From sequence record PV112478.1: a stretch of 64,000 nucleotides of DNA; one strand, 5' to 3'. The translations under genes were made by a program, and so were the position numbers. Positions 4,596 through 54,662 of the stretch are shown here, one piece after another (position 1 is the first letter of the stretch; every line of letters starts with the position of its first letter). The stretch comes from Klebsiella phage LPKP23. The notes beneath the pieces were generated by a model. It had not been told where the DNA came from. It saw nothing but the letters and a program-made list of their open reading frames with translations, and ran no database searches.

Positions 4596-4625
4596 TGTTG
4601 TCTCTACACTAGAGTGATATAGACG
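4596..4625 (-). promoter_or_regulatory. Conserved promoter-like element copy 1 (core CTATATCAC on the minus strand)
   Basis: On the plus strand it reads ctctacactagaGTGATATAGacgttaac. It is one of 8 copies, all in the same orientation upstream of minus-strand genes. Confidence 0.5.
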
Positions 4626-5177
4626 TTAACCAGATTGGGTTTCGGTATCCTTTACGTAAATACCCGTTTCTACATCTAGTGTAAAACCCACGACCTCCAG
4701 ATTAACCCGCTCATTACCTTCGGCTGTAATCTTGAAACGTGCATTACAAGTCTCAATGTTAACTTCCCCGTCGACGCAGATAAATGCATCATCGATCAGC
4801 CCCGGTATATCGATTTCAGTCCCGTTGACTAAATCGAATACTCGGAAGTTATACGTCGTATTCTGAGTGGGGCGAAAACGCGGGTACTGAACAACGACGT
4901 GACCTGAACTTTCGAGTTCACCATCTTCGTTAAATTTAGTGTAACGGATGAGCACTTTGTCCACCGCAAAATTTGACAGTGTACGTATTTGCATATCGGT
5001 GAATGTTAACTCCCCGCTAGCAGCCGCCAAACCAACCAAATTAAACCCGACGTCAGAGTTTGCTTTAAAGAACACTCGTCCTTCTGCCTCAGGAATTCCG
5101 GTAACAAAATACTCTTGGTTTTCTTTGATGATCTTAAACTGCATTTTCTTAATATCGGTAAACATAGCTTTGTCCAC
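4626..5177 (-). CDS. Hypothetical protein (183 aa)
   Basis: ORF in the array. Confidence 0.45.
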   Translation of the reverse strand: MDKAMFTDIKKMQFKIIKENQEYFVTGIPEAEGRVFFKANSDVGFNLVGLAAASGELTFTDMQIRTLSNFAVDKVLIRYTKFNEDGELESSGHVVVQYPRFRPTQNTTYNFRVFDLVNGTEIDIPGLIDDAFICVDGEVNIETCNARFKITAEGNERVNLEVVGFTLDVETGIYVKDTETQSG

Positions 5178-5185
5178 TTAATATC

Positions 5186-5617
5186 CTATTCGATGTTGCT
5201 GTATTGATCACCCACCCATACTACGGGCGTTAATAGTCCTCGACCGATTTCCTGCTCGCGGTCTTTTTGTTTGTCTTCGTCGGAAAAACCGTCGATGCGC
5301 ATGAGTTGATGAGGTCGAAAGGCAGCATTAAAATAAGTACCCCCTGAATCTAAGAAAGATTCTGCTAATCCCTTAAAGCATCCACCAACTAACCCCCAAT
5401 GAAATTCCACATAGGACCGAACTTTACCATTAACCATCCAAACTTCCCGTCCCGAGATAACTTCTGCAACATTCTCTAATCCATTTTCGTTAACGGTGAC
5501 TTGAAGCATATTTCCTGGCGAAATACTAACGCCAAGAATGACTTCTTTCCCGACATTTTCTGGATTTTTAGAGTCTCGGATGACTATTGCCCGACAACCG
5601 GGTTCTAAAGGTTTCAT
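5186..5617 (-). CDS. Hypothetical protein (143 aa)
   Basis: ORF in the array. It overlaps the next gene by 4 nt. Confidence 0.45.
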   Translation of the reverse strand: MKPLEPGCRAIVIRDSKNPENVGKEVILGVSISPGNMLQVTVNENGLENVAEVISGREVWMVNGKVRSYVEFHWGLVGGCFKGLAESFLDSGGTYFNAAFRPHQLMRIDGFSDEDKQKDREQEIGRGLLTPVVWVGDQYSNIE

Positions 5618-5994
5618 TTATCTTTCCCCTGCACAAGGAAATATTCACGTATTCCCTCAGCTAATGGACCAAAGTCAGAAACCAACTGTAATAGGGATAA
5701 TTGGTCATCAGTCTGTCGCAGCCTTTCGAGCCCTATATGAGGAGGCTTCAGACCGACAGTAGAGAGCTCTAGTTTACCGAGGTATATCTTTGTCTGCCCT
5801 CGATCGAGGAACGCATGAAATGACAATTCCGGTCCAGTGGCAAGGATCATCCCGTCGAAGGGATTCTTTCCGTTATAAACACTCCCCCTTTGAAAGTGGA
5901 AAGCTGCTGCTACTTTCTCTCCCTCTCCCAATTCCTTTTGGCAATGTTTCAGCCAACGTTCAGTGAGTTCCGCTTCTTTGAATTTGAATTCCAT
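5614..5994 (-). CDS. Hypothetical protein (126 aa)
   Basis: ATGA-type 4-nt overlap with the downstream gene indicates translational coupling. Confidence 0.45.
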   Translation of the reverse strand: MEFKFKEAELTERWLKHCQKELGEGEKVAAAFHFQRGSVYNGKNPFDGMILATGPELSFHAFLDRGQTKIYLGKLELSTVGLKPPHIGLERLRQTDDQLSLLQLVSDFGPLAEGIREYFLVQGKDK

Positions 5995-6003
5995 TTTGTA
6001 CTC

Positions 6004-6261
6004 CTATAATTTTTGGTTCAATTCCATGGCAACTTCGATGAATTCTACCATGGTGCCTACTATCTCTTCCTTAATATCCAAGTCAACATCAGTAAGCGCA
6101 TGTCCGATTCCCCTACGGTCAAGGAGATCGTCTATTATCGCCAGCGCAGCTAATCTGGCAGGGCTTGAAGTCAATCTTTCGCCACTATCATAAGGGTATT
6201 TTGCGGCGTTGAGCATAGTTTCTAATGTGGTCAATTCAATCACCTCTTCTTTATATTTCAT
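6004..6261 (-). CDS. Hypothetical small acidic protein (85 aa)
   Basis: ORF immediately downstream of a terminator hairpin. Confidence 0.4.
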   Translation of the reverse strand: MKYKEEVIELTTLETMLNAAKYPYDSGERLTSSPARLAALAIIDDLLDRRGIGHALTDVDLDIKEEIVGTMVEFIEVAMELNQKL

Positions 6262-6269
6262 TAATCAAA

Positions 6270-6302
6270 ATAAAAAAGTATAGGGGATTTCTCCCCTATA
6301 CC
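6270..6302 (-). terminator. Rho-independent terminator
   Basis: The palindrome gtataggggatttctcccctatac has an A-run on the plus-strand side, giving a U-run after the hairpin in the minus-strand transcript. Confidence 0.6.
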
Positions 6303-6320
6303 GGCTTTATGTTCCTAAAC

Positions 6321-53143: not shown

Positions 53144-53148
53144 GGGAA

Positions 53149-53556
53149 TTATTCATCGTCTTCGAAGTCTTCCGGTACAGATTGGTAATCGTCATCGTCG
53201 TAGTCGTCCCAATCCTCTTCCTCGCTGTCGTCAAGTTCATCGATGATCTTGTTGTCAGCTTCTTCCATGAACCAGCCTTTCTCAGCCAGTGTAGCAGCAA
53301 AGACGTTGTTCCCTTCTTCGATCAGCGTTTCGGTCACCGCCCCTGAGTCATTCTCAGTAACGGCAACCACCGTGAGTTCTTCGCCGTCAGCGGTCTTATC
53401 GTTGACATCCGTTTTATAGAGTTCAAACCCTAACTGCTCGTTGACACTTTCTAATGTTTCAGAAAGGTCGAGTGGGTCCACCGGACGCCCGTCGTTGTCG
53501 ATGACTTCGAAAGTCTCTTCGTCGGTACTGAATTTCAGGATAGTGCGATTTGTCAT
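53149..53556 (-). CDS. Highly acidic protein (135 aa) with a poly-Asp/Glu C-terminal tail
   Basis: It ends in DELDDSEEEDWDDYDDDDYQSVPEDFEDDE and is acidic throughout. It is either a DNA-mimic candidate or a fibre-assembly factor. Confidence 0.45.
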   Translation of the reverse strand: MTNRTILKFSTDEETFEVIDNDGRPVDPLDLSETLESVNEQLGFELYKTDVNDKTADGEELTVVAVTENDSGAVTETLIEEGNNVFAATLAEKGWFMEEADNKIIDELDDSEEEDWDDYDDDDYQSVPEDFEDDE

Positions 53557-53882
53557 TTCCAGTCCTCCTGGGTGCGTTTAATAAAGAGTGCGTCAACGAC
53601 AGTCAGATCGACAGGGATCAGCTCAGTCGCCGCATAGGGTTGCATAAAGTAAAGCGTCAGGGTTGTGTCGTTGGTAAGTTTCCCAACTACATTATAAAGA
53701 ACACCGTTGTACATTCCGGATGTGCCGGTTTTCAGATTGAGTGCGATAATGAGTTGTCGGCCCAGTAAATCGCAATTGTTACCAGGGTAACTGTCGCGGA
53801 GTTTAAAGAGTACTCGACCCACCTTTTCTTGCCATTCTTTCATTAACACATTGAGAATTGTTTCTCTTGTAATAACCTGCAT
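53553..53882 (-). CDS. Hypothetical protein (about 109 aa from the Met with an AAGGAAG RBS; the ORF-track version extends to 53990)
   Basis: The RBS-supported ATG is at 53882. There is a 4-nt overlap with the downstream gene. Confidence 0.4.
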   Translation of the reverse strand: MQVITRETILNVLMKEWQEKVGRVLFKLRDSYPGNNCDLLGRQLIIALNLKTGTSGMYNGVLYNVVGKLTNDTTLTLYFMQPYAATELIPVDLTVVDALFIKRTQEDWK

Positions 53883-54003
53883 CTTGTCTTCCTTATTGGT
53901 CGTTATCATAGAAAGTTTACTTAAAAATAGATTTGGGGTAGTCAAGAAAAACAGGCGGTATATTGCTATGTTAACACCTAAAATGAACAAGGCATAAGTA
54001 GCG

Positions 54004-54216
54004 ATGAACTATTCAATCATTCCCACCACAGCGCAAAAAATTGTTGAGATTACCCGCAGTAAAATTGACCCGAATGCGGTCACGCTCATTTTCGAAGACG
54101 GGGCAAACGAAACATTTCTGGATTGGTTTGTCCAGAAACATAAACCAGCAATCGGTCGTTTTCTGGCCAAAGACACCGACGGTTTCCTGCACGTAGTAGA
54201 CACGATCGACGCATAA
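54004..54216 (+). CDS. Hypothetical protein (70 aa), a lone plus-strand gene inside the minus-strand array
   Basis: ATG ORF divergent from 53553..53882. It ends 8 nt before a bidirectional hairpin. Confidence 0.45.
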   Translation: MNYSIIPTTAQKIVEITRSKIDPNAVTLIFEDGANETFLDWFVQKHKPAIGRFLAKDTDGFLHVVDTIDA

Positions 54217-54223
54217 AAGAACA

Positions 54224-54256
54224 CAGAAAGGAAAGGGGTTAGTCCCCTTTCCTTTC
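54224..54256. terminator. Bidirectional hairpin terminator
   Basis: Hairpin gaaaggaaagggg-ttag-tcccctttcctttc between convergent genes. Confidence 0.5.
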
Positions 54257-54501
54257 TAGTCTATATTGTTTTTCAGGATGTCTTCGGCAGGGTAGAAATG
54301 ATCTTCTACGATTTTACCGAATTGATGGGCGCCAGTGAGTGCGTTTTCTACGGGGGTGATGTAAGCGGCTTTATTGTCCCAGGGCGGGAGAAGCTCTGAG
54401 AGCAGCAGCGCGGCTTCGTTTAGTAAAGGTAGGTTCTCGTCAGGGACGAATGAGATTGTCTCTTGTAGGCTCTCTAAGAGCGCTATACGGGGAGTAAACA
54501 T
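54256..54501 (-). CDS. Hypothetical acidic protein (81 aa)
   Basis: First ORF after promoter-like element P8. Confidence 0.4.
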   Translation of the reverse strand: MFTPRIALLESLQETISFVPDENLPLLNEAALLLSELLPPWDNKAAYITPVENALTGAHQFGKIVEDHFYPAEDILKNNID

Positions 54502-54631
54502 AGTTGACCCTTAAAGGTGAAATAAGACAGGGACCGAAGTCCCCGAACTTATAAATTAAAATGAATGTCTCGTTATTAACCGGCACTGTGAGAAACGGTT
54601 AAATAGGAGTAATCGGAGGGTGTCTTATTTC

Positions 54632-54662
54632 CTCTTCACAATTGTAATATAGATGTGAAAAA
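54632..54662 (-). promoter_or_regulatory. Conserved promoter-like element copy 8 (variant core CTATATTAC)
   Basis: On the plus strand it reads cttcacaattGTAATATAGatgtgaaaaag. Confidence 0.45.

Follow-up and report, generated by a model that had tools for sequence, protein, structure and literature searches.

Probable early promoters of the phiKZ type in a Siatvirus-like Klebsiella jumbo phage

Introduction

All jumbo phages with multisubunit RNA polymerases (RNAPs) carry a conserved AT-rich motif, centered near position -10, upstream of their early operons (PMC7598289). Early transcription in these phages is independent of the host RNAP and of new protein synthesis and is thus performed by the injected virion RNAP (PMC7598289, PMC13282480). 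Here, we describe an element of this kind that is repeated eight times in 64,000 nucleotides (nt) of Klebsiella phage LPKP23 (record PV112478.1), a stretch referred to at its full length as the window. With high confidence, we read the eight elements as early promoters of a phiKZ-like, nucleus-forming chimallivirus that are used by the injected virion RNAP (vRNAP).

Early promoters of phiKZ combine an extended -10 element with a T-rich block upstream of -19 (PMC8244752), and in phiKZ and phiR1-37, the consensus is followed after 6 nt by the transcription start site (TSS) (PMC5312081). The vRNAP initiates at 28 early promoters, including promoters of genes for the non-virion RNAP (nvRNAP) (PMC13282480). 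Consensus strings of N1M2, OBP, 201phi2-1, and phiKZ have been tabulated, with phiKZ represented by its core (TATATTAC) only (PMC7058600). In the literature searched, no description of the promoters or transcriptome of Siatvirus or Maaswegvirus, the two genera considered below, was found, and the sites in the window are probably unannotated so far.

A repeated element on the minus strand

The core of the element reads GTGATATAG on the plus strand, equivalent to CTATATCAC on the minus strand. Seven exact copies begin at 4614, 16010, 17448, 21609, 34678, 35239, and 46390; an eighth, at 54644, reads CTATATTAC and has one mismatch to the core. We refer to these sites, by position, as P1 to P8. All eight lie on the minus strand of the window. 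Only 0.28 exact cores would be expected by chance, and none of 100 dinucleotide-preserving shuffles reached seven, confirming that the repeat is real and far above chance. An initial inspection of the letters (the sequence-only reading) had listed eight conserved copies in a single orientation, which stands except that the copy at 54644 is not an exact one. The near identity that it noted between copies 2 and 7 also holds (29 of 32 positions, from TTTTAAA to GGTAA), while the consensus that it gave was skewed toward these two copies.

A position weight matrix (PWM) covering -34 to +4 retrieved exactly eight sites in the window, scoring 32 to 44.5 bits, with all other positions on both strands at 8 bits or below. 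The scores were bimodal, with a clean gap between the eight sites and the background. Seven of the eight cores fall within the ~6.5% of the window that lies outside a greedy set of open reading frames (ORFs) (93.5% coding), and the remaining core is inside the last 16 nt of an ORF. Between the presumed +1 G and the first start codon after it, the leaders of the eight sites are 28 to 136 nt long. A strong hairpin stands just upstream of four sites (P2 to P5, with presumed starts at 16003, 17441, 21602, and 34671); a terminator scan covered two of these hairpins, those before P2 and P3, and flagged both as terminator-like. The other four sites (P1, P6, P7, and P8) adjoin or overlap the 3' end of the preceding ORF. 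These placements agree with the earlier description of the element as heading blocks of minus-strand genes, often after a terminator.

Relationship to phiKZ-like chimalliviruses

By megablast, the window is 95 to 98% identical to KpXa_1, KpLz-2_45, and MJ359, members of a group of ~300-kb Klebsiella jumbo phages. vB_KpM_FBKp24 (FBKp24) and Centimanus match the window at ~80% identity, in patches only. The genus Siatvirus (family Chimalliviridae) has KpLz-2_45 as its type, and FBKp24 belongs to the genus Maaswegvirus. Judged by these matches, the window is from a Siatvirus-type Klebsiella jumbo phage of the Chimalliviridae. The complete genome of KpLz-2_45 (95 to 97% identical to the window) was used for genome-wide tests.

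In KpLz-2_45, gp302 is PhuZ and gp315 is chimallin (PHROG "nuclear shell protein," E = 1.3e-44); a PhuZ tubulin and a nucleus-shell protein were likewise reported for FBKp24 in its genome paper (PMC8386662). The nvRNAP set of KpLz-2_45 is complete, with gp316 corresponding to phiKZ gp55, gp329 to gp71 and gp73, gp330 to gp74, and gp324 to gp68. The vRNAP set is also complete, with gp116 corresponding to phiKZ gp178, gp117 to gp180, gp128 to gp149, and gp187 to gp80. Both sets are arranged in the same synteny as in phiKZ. KpLz-2_45 thus has the gene content of a member of this phage group, namely, two split beta/beta' multisubunit RNAP sets, chimallin, and PhuZ, all encoded outside the stretch that corresponds to the window. 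The phiKZ record labels gp80, gp149, gp178, and gp180 as structural head proteins, and the structure paper on FBKp24 holds no RNAP or proteomics data indicating which RNAP set sits in the virion.

Architecture of the element

With the seed pattern TATATYAC-N5-TG, eight hits were obtained in the window and 22 in KpLz-2_45, the latter exclusively on the minus strand; sites were aligned on the invariant G. The element extends over ~36 nt and consists of T-C-N-A (-32 to -29), TT-N-A-N-R (-22 to -17), (C/A)TATAT(C/T)AC (-15 to -7), five variable positions, and T-G (-1/+1). The consensus of the 22 sites in the related genome, T-TC-A-N6-tTT-A-R-yCTATATCAC-nyTAkTGAA, fits the eight copies in the window.

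Conservation among the KpLz-2_45 sites extends well outside the seed. Within the -30 block, T is found at -32 in 20/22 sites, C at -31 in 19/22, and A at -29 in 22/22. The -20 block has T at -22 and at -21 (21/22 each), A at -19 (19/22), and a purine at -17 (22/22). Position -15 is C or A at all 22 sites, and conservation near the start includes T at -4 (17/22), A at -3 (19/22), A at +2 (17/22), and A at +3 (18/22). The core (C/A)TATAT(C/T)AC is AT rich and centered near -10, with six of eight core positions invariant across the 22 sites. The T-rich block near -20 and the conservation near -30 keep a fixed spacing from this core, as published for the early class. A T-G follows the core by 6 to 7 nt at all 22 seed sites and all eight window sites; by analogy with AR9 and phiKZ, it would mark the 5' end of the transcript (PMC5312081).

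Comparison with other phages

In genome letters, phiKZ carries ...aaaaaaaTTTgAgatcTATATTAC-N5-TG upstream of gp54 (chimallin), gp68, and other genes, and its early promoters, including those of gp54 and gp68, read ...TTTgAgatcTATATTAC-N5-TG. The order and spacing of the blocks are the same as in the Klebsiella phage (TTT-N-A, N4, TATATTAC [TATATYAC], N5, TG), and sites stand upstream of the same genes, chimallin/gp54-gp55 and gp68. The two phages also agree in that the motif is always co-oriented with the genes and in its number, with ~28 to 32 copies per genome in phiKZ (PMC8244752) compared with 28 in KpLz-2_45. A matrix built from Siatvirus sites picks up phiKZ early promoters, on the gene strand. 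The motifs differ at two places. Position -9 is T in phiKZ, whereas the Klebsiella phage has C in most copies (TATATCAC), and the -30 region is an A-run in phiKZ but T-C-N-A in the Klebsiella phage.

Published consensus strings of OBP, N1M2, and 201phi2-1 align with the Klebsiella motif at the same spacing. The N1M2 string (T-B-Y-A, 5 nt, TTT-N-A-R-R-Y-A/C, core, N5-TG-WA; 31 copies) does so position by position, and its T-B-Y-A block at -30 is also present in the Klebsiella motif. In contrast, its core is (K)ATATTAT rather than TATATCAC. N1M2 was absent from the nucleotide-level matches to the window found by megablast. For 201phi2-1, the early promoters read TTAWTAVAA_HYWTTTRARR_BTATATTACDWHDGTG, with the spacing from TTT-R-A-R-R to the core and the GTG as found here (PMC7058600); conservation lies at -10, -20, and -30 relative to the experimentally mapped TSS region (PMC11512511). 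For 201phi2-1, no more than six experimentally supported copies have been reported, and the -30 block is not the same as in the Klebsiella motif. AR9 shares an AT-rich core followed by six nt and an initiating G (AAATATATATTAT-(6N)-G+1; 41 copies per genome) (PMC5312081), and its early promoters are read by an injected virion multisubunit RNAP. AR9 differs in having uracil in its genome, a longer AT-run, and neither the TTT-N-A nor the T-C-N-A block in the form seen in the Klebsiella phage. In sum, the sites are a textbook member of a known promoter family, that of phiKZ and its relatives.

The vRNAP of N4 is a single-subunit enzyme that uses DNA hairpin promoters, and T7-type promoters are double-stranded sites of ~23 bp. 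These systems likewise pair phage-specific promoters with a phage-encoded polymerase, which in N4 is also injected from the virion, but neither promoter resembles the sequence found in the Klebsiella phage.

When the syntenic 50 kb of FBKp24 was scanned with the same matrix, seven minus-strand sites were retrieved, which correspond one to one in position to P2 to P8 (7/7 positional orthologs). Between FBKp24 and the window, motif positions are 87% identical and the remaining positions within -34 to +4 are 62.5% identical, with visibly lower identity in most flanks of the sites.

Genome-wide distribution

The genome-wide motif search proposed in the sequence-only reading was performed on KpLz-2_45 as a complete relative. 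Above a cutoff of 18 bits, the PWM retrieved 28 sites, every one of them on the minus strand; in 20 shuffled genomes, no score exceeded 14.6. All 28 sites lie 25 to 136 nt upstream of an annotated coding sequence on the minus strand. Sites directly precede gp315 (chimallin) and gp316 (gp55 homolog) at 220404, gp324 (gp68 homolog) at 212111, and gp329/gp330 (gp71 to gp74 homologs of the nvRNAP) at 206939. In contrast to these genes at the head of early operons, the four vRNAP homologs (gp116, gp117, gp128, and gp187) have no site before them in the complete KpLz-2_45 genome by PWM.

A few further observations were made with the matrix. In phiKZ, it found TATATCAT-core variants of the early motif at 43077 (63077 in the record), 15890, and 24936, for example, upstream of gp70.1/gp71, that a plain search for TATATTAC missed. 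A second motif was suspected on the plus strand of KpLz-2_45 at 259880, 262811, and 281699; these turned out to be the minus-strand motif again, in weaker variants (cores TATATTGC and TATATAGC). Finally, a strong site (41.6 bits) lies at 266222 of KpLz-2_45, within what is annotated as the 5' end of gp246 (metal-dependent phosphohydrolase, start 266260); this suggests that the RefSeq start codon of gp246 is set too far upstream.

Proposed mechanism and alternative explanations

Because the motif has the published sequence features of the class and is homologous to its members, we consider the sites to be, very probably, vRNAP early promoters. In this mechanism, a split beta/beta' vRNAP (homologs of gp178, gp180, gp149, and gp80) would be carried in the capsid and injected together with the DNA. 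The enzyme would bind the sites using the (C/A)TATATCAC block at about -15 to -7 as a -10-like element, with upstream contacts at TT-N-A (near -20) and T-C-N-A (near -30), and RNA would start at the conserved G, 7 nt past the core. Early transcription would then proceed without the host RNAP and without new protein synthesis. The window would contain ~8 early transcription units, composed of small genes of unknown function and genes for nucleotide and nicotinamide adenine dinucleotide (NAD) metabolism, with several units bounded by intrinsic terminators just upstream of the next promoter. The analysis shows the architecture of the sequence, its distribution across the genome, its orthology to the sites of phiKZ, and the gene content; the timing, exact +1, and identity of the enzyme are drawn from homology with phiKZ and AR9.

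Some points weigh against this assignment. For this phage and its genus, we infer the +1 and the early timing, and the RNAP genes, which lie outside the window, are presumed to be present on the basis of relatives that are 95 to 98% identical. In 201phi2-1, some nvRNAP genes are not behind early promoters, so the link is not absolute (PMC11512511). Promoter recognition by the vRNAP is not established in the literature consulted, and coinjected factors may take part (PMC13282480). Lastly, four of the KpLz-2_45 sites (77122, 101687, 113320, and 138955) are within the structural-gene region, and P8 is situated between tail genes in the window.

These sites among structural genes, along with the indirect basis for timing, speak for an alternative in which the elements are middle-class or continuously used promoters, read by newly made nvRNAP with or without an accessory factor; in AR9, some genes have early as well as late promoters (PMC7598289). 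We regard this explanation as improbable. Late promoters of phiKZ consist of TATG at the start site with nothing conserved upstream, a weak motif, AT-rich or TACT, lies around -22 to -24 at its middle promoters, and late promoters of AR9 read AACA-(6N)-TA/G (PMC7598289, PMC8244752). The present motif is instead strongly conserved at -10, -20, and -30, has T-G rather than TATG at the start, and matches the early class position by position. Moreover, because the motif precedes the nvRNAP genes, the first synthesis of the nvRNAP would be left unexplained if that enzyme were the sole reader. The sequence-only reading had favored a middle or late class; since the motif is the same as the phiKZ-like early promoter and, in KpLz-2_45, precedes the chimallin and nvRNAP genes rather than virion or vRNAP genes, an early class is the better assignment.

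Recognition by host sigma-70 RNAP, with TATATC as the -10 box, is very improbable. The core does hold this TATA-type hexamer, a 4/6 match to TATAAT, at about the right distance from the conserved G. However, the hexamer is without the key final T, no TG extended -10 element is present, and the conserved upstream blocks stand 13 and 3 nt from the hexamer rather than 16 to 18 nt. The -35 hexamer is not conserved, the best sigma-70 match per site reaches 6 to 8 of 12 positions, and a sigma-70 consensus scan flagged none of the four sites it covered. Phages of the phiKZ type also develop independently of the host RNAP (PMC7598289, PMC13282480). The geometry thus supports the initial view that the promoter is phage specific and departs from sigma-70 spacing.

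An equally slim probability attaches to the proposal, made in the same initial view, that the element binds a small phage protein with a sigma-region-4-like helix-turn-helix (HTH), encoded by ORF 11554-11787 or 11820-12119, that activates or redirects an RNAP: the stretch ENGLDDETIAAAFSVPVDDV of a 99-aa ORF is HTH-like by eye, but neither ORF matches Pfam (E < 0.01), PHROG (E < 0.001), or PDB sequences (E < 1), both follow downstream of P2, no further copy of the motif intervenes, and they are thus probably transcribed from such a promoter themselves, the motif is conserved across phiKZ, 201phi2-1, OBP, and N1M2, and a newly made protein is an unlikely reader because the homologous early promoters of phiKZ and AR9 do not depend on new protein synthesis (PMC7598289, PMC5312081).

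Promoters, hairpins, and genes of the window

Features in this section lie on the minus strand unless otherwise stated. P1 (4604..4641; 38.5 bits) has its core, CTATATCAC, at 4614-4622 and its presumed +1 G at 4607. A leader of 77 nt connects it to the ATG of a 274-aa ORF (3706-4530), and the orthologous site in KpLz-2_45 is at 2201. Farther along, the product of 2077-2802 (241 aa) carries a Cro/C1-type HTH_3 domain at its C terminus (Pfam E = 3.5e-9) and is annotated in relatives as "plasmid antitoxin with HTH domain" or "CII-like regulator." No further copy of the motif separates its gene from P1 upstream, which makes this protein a candidate early regulator.

P2 (16000..16037; 44.5 bits) has its core at 16010-16018 and a presumed +1 G at 16003; the leader of 58 nt precedes ORF 15445-15945, and the positional ortholog in FBKp24 is at 170645. 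Directly before P2, a terminator-like hairpin with a T-run (16038..16074) ends the unit of a 438-aa ATPase-like ORF (16082-17398), and the orthologous place in the FBKp24 RefSeq record carries an annotated terminator. That ORF lies behind P3 (17438..17475; 42.2 bits; core 17448-17456; presumed +1 G 17441) after a leader of 43 nt, with the FBKp24 ortholog of the promoter at 172079. Just upstream of P3 is another terminator-like hairpin (17473..17507), with a 10-bp GC-rich stem and a T-rich tail.

P4 (21599..21636; 42.7 bits; core 21609-21617; presumed +1 G 21602) is followed after 40 nt by the GTG of ORF 21317-21562 and has its FBKp24 ortholog at 179647. The 3' arm of a hairpin formed by ACAGGGTC and GACCCTGT (21622..21647) overlaps the -30 element of P4, and a terminator is annotated at the orthologous place in FBKp24. 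The ORFs at 16082-17398 (438 aa) and 21659-23038 (459 aa) are syntenic with FBKp24 genes annotated as AAA family ATPases. The first has weak matches to ATPase PHROGs and stands as a separate unit between P3 and the terminator that precedes P2; the second ends just before the hairpin upstream of P4.

P5 (34668..34705; 32.1 bits; core 34678-34686; presumed +1 G 34671) has the shortest leader, 28 nt, leading to the GTG of ORF 34137-34643; its FBKp24 ortholog is at 194381. The strong hairpin upstream of P5 (34701..34755) has a 12-bp stem (34727-34755) and a T-rich tail. P6 (35229..35266; 33.1 bits; core 35239-35247; presumed +1 G 35232) precedes ORF 34763-35167 by a leader of 65 nt, and the FBKp24 ortholog is at 194939. 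No hairpin lies upstream of P6, the -30 and -20 elements of which overlap the 3' end of ORF 35251-35802. P7 (46380..46417; 37.1 bits; core 46390-46398; presumed +1 G 46383) is embedded in the last codons of ORF 46382-46876. Its leader of 32 nt leads to ORF 45923-46351, and the FBKp24 ortholog is at 205758. For this gene, the first one behind P7, PHROG gave a weak match (E = 6e-7) to a protein of the host-takeover category, an SspB-like stringent starvation protein.

By position relative to the KpLz-2_45 annotation, the stretches 27350-28729, 40339-42738, and 48207-48830 encode thymidylate synthase, the NAD-salvage proteins NadR and PnuC, and dUTPase. For the stretch behind P5, the KpLz-2_45 annotation also lists an RNA 2'-phosphotransferase (KptA). 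These genes of nucleotide and NAD metabolism may be expressed early, provided that transcripts started at the upstream promoters extend that far.

P8 (54634..54671; 33.1 bits) has the variant core CTATATTAC at 54644-54652 and a presumed +1 G at 54637, with its FBKp24 ortholog at 214025. A structured leader of 136 nt separates it from an 81-aa ORF (54256-54501). A strong, bidirectional terminator-like hairpin with a perfect 15-bp stem (54224..54258, no strand assigned) closes the P8 unit. It is flanked by the 81-aa ORF on one side and a small plus-strand ORF (54004-54216) on the other and separates the unit from downstream genes, including the tail fiber genes at 48894-53040.

The P8 leader (54502-54637) is predicted to adopt a closed fold (minimum free energy, -33.5 kcal/mol; z = -2.2) in which the 5' end is paired with the sequence right behind a terminator-like hairpin (54545-54528). 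The first ~80 nt are ~90% identical to the FBKp24 ortholog (L008, ~48884-49025), with divergence of the flanking noncoding DNA, and a terminator is annotated within the FBKp24 ortholog of the leader in RefSeq. An Rfam search of the window matched no family. P8 may drive a conserved, structured transcript, ~110 to 135 nt long, that stops at an intrinsic terminator within its own leader. Such a transcript may be an early small RNA derived from the 5' untranslated region, or an attenuator, beside the tail fiber cluster; an RNA of this description, 5'-derived or an attenuator, is known from 201phi2-1 (PMC11512511).

The C at -9 in most copies, together with T-C-N-A at -32 to -29, could be a mark of shifted vRNAP specificity. 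We consider it rather unlikely, taken jointly, that this lineage has a shifted vRNAP specificity and that P8 produces a structured, terminated transcript.

Conclusions

Our analysis provides a map of probable early transcription units for a Klebsiella jumbo phage, with eight predicted starts in the window and ~28 per genome. Relatives of this phage are under study as therapy candidates. No new mechanism is revealed, and the points possibly worth further work are limited to the C at -9, the T-C-N-A at -30, and the conserved structured leader of P8. If the vRNAP specificity has indeed shifted, the differences between this lineage and phiKZ could help to map the determinants of promoter recognition by virion RNAPs. 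More generally, the early promoter of the phiKZ type is conserved in detail from the chimalliviruses of Pseudomonas to those of Klebsiella, which is of use for predicting gene timing, for phage engineering, and for choosing orthogonal promoter parts.

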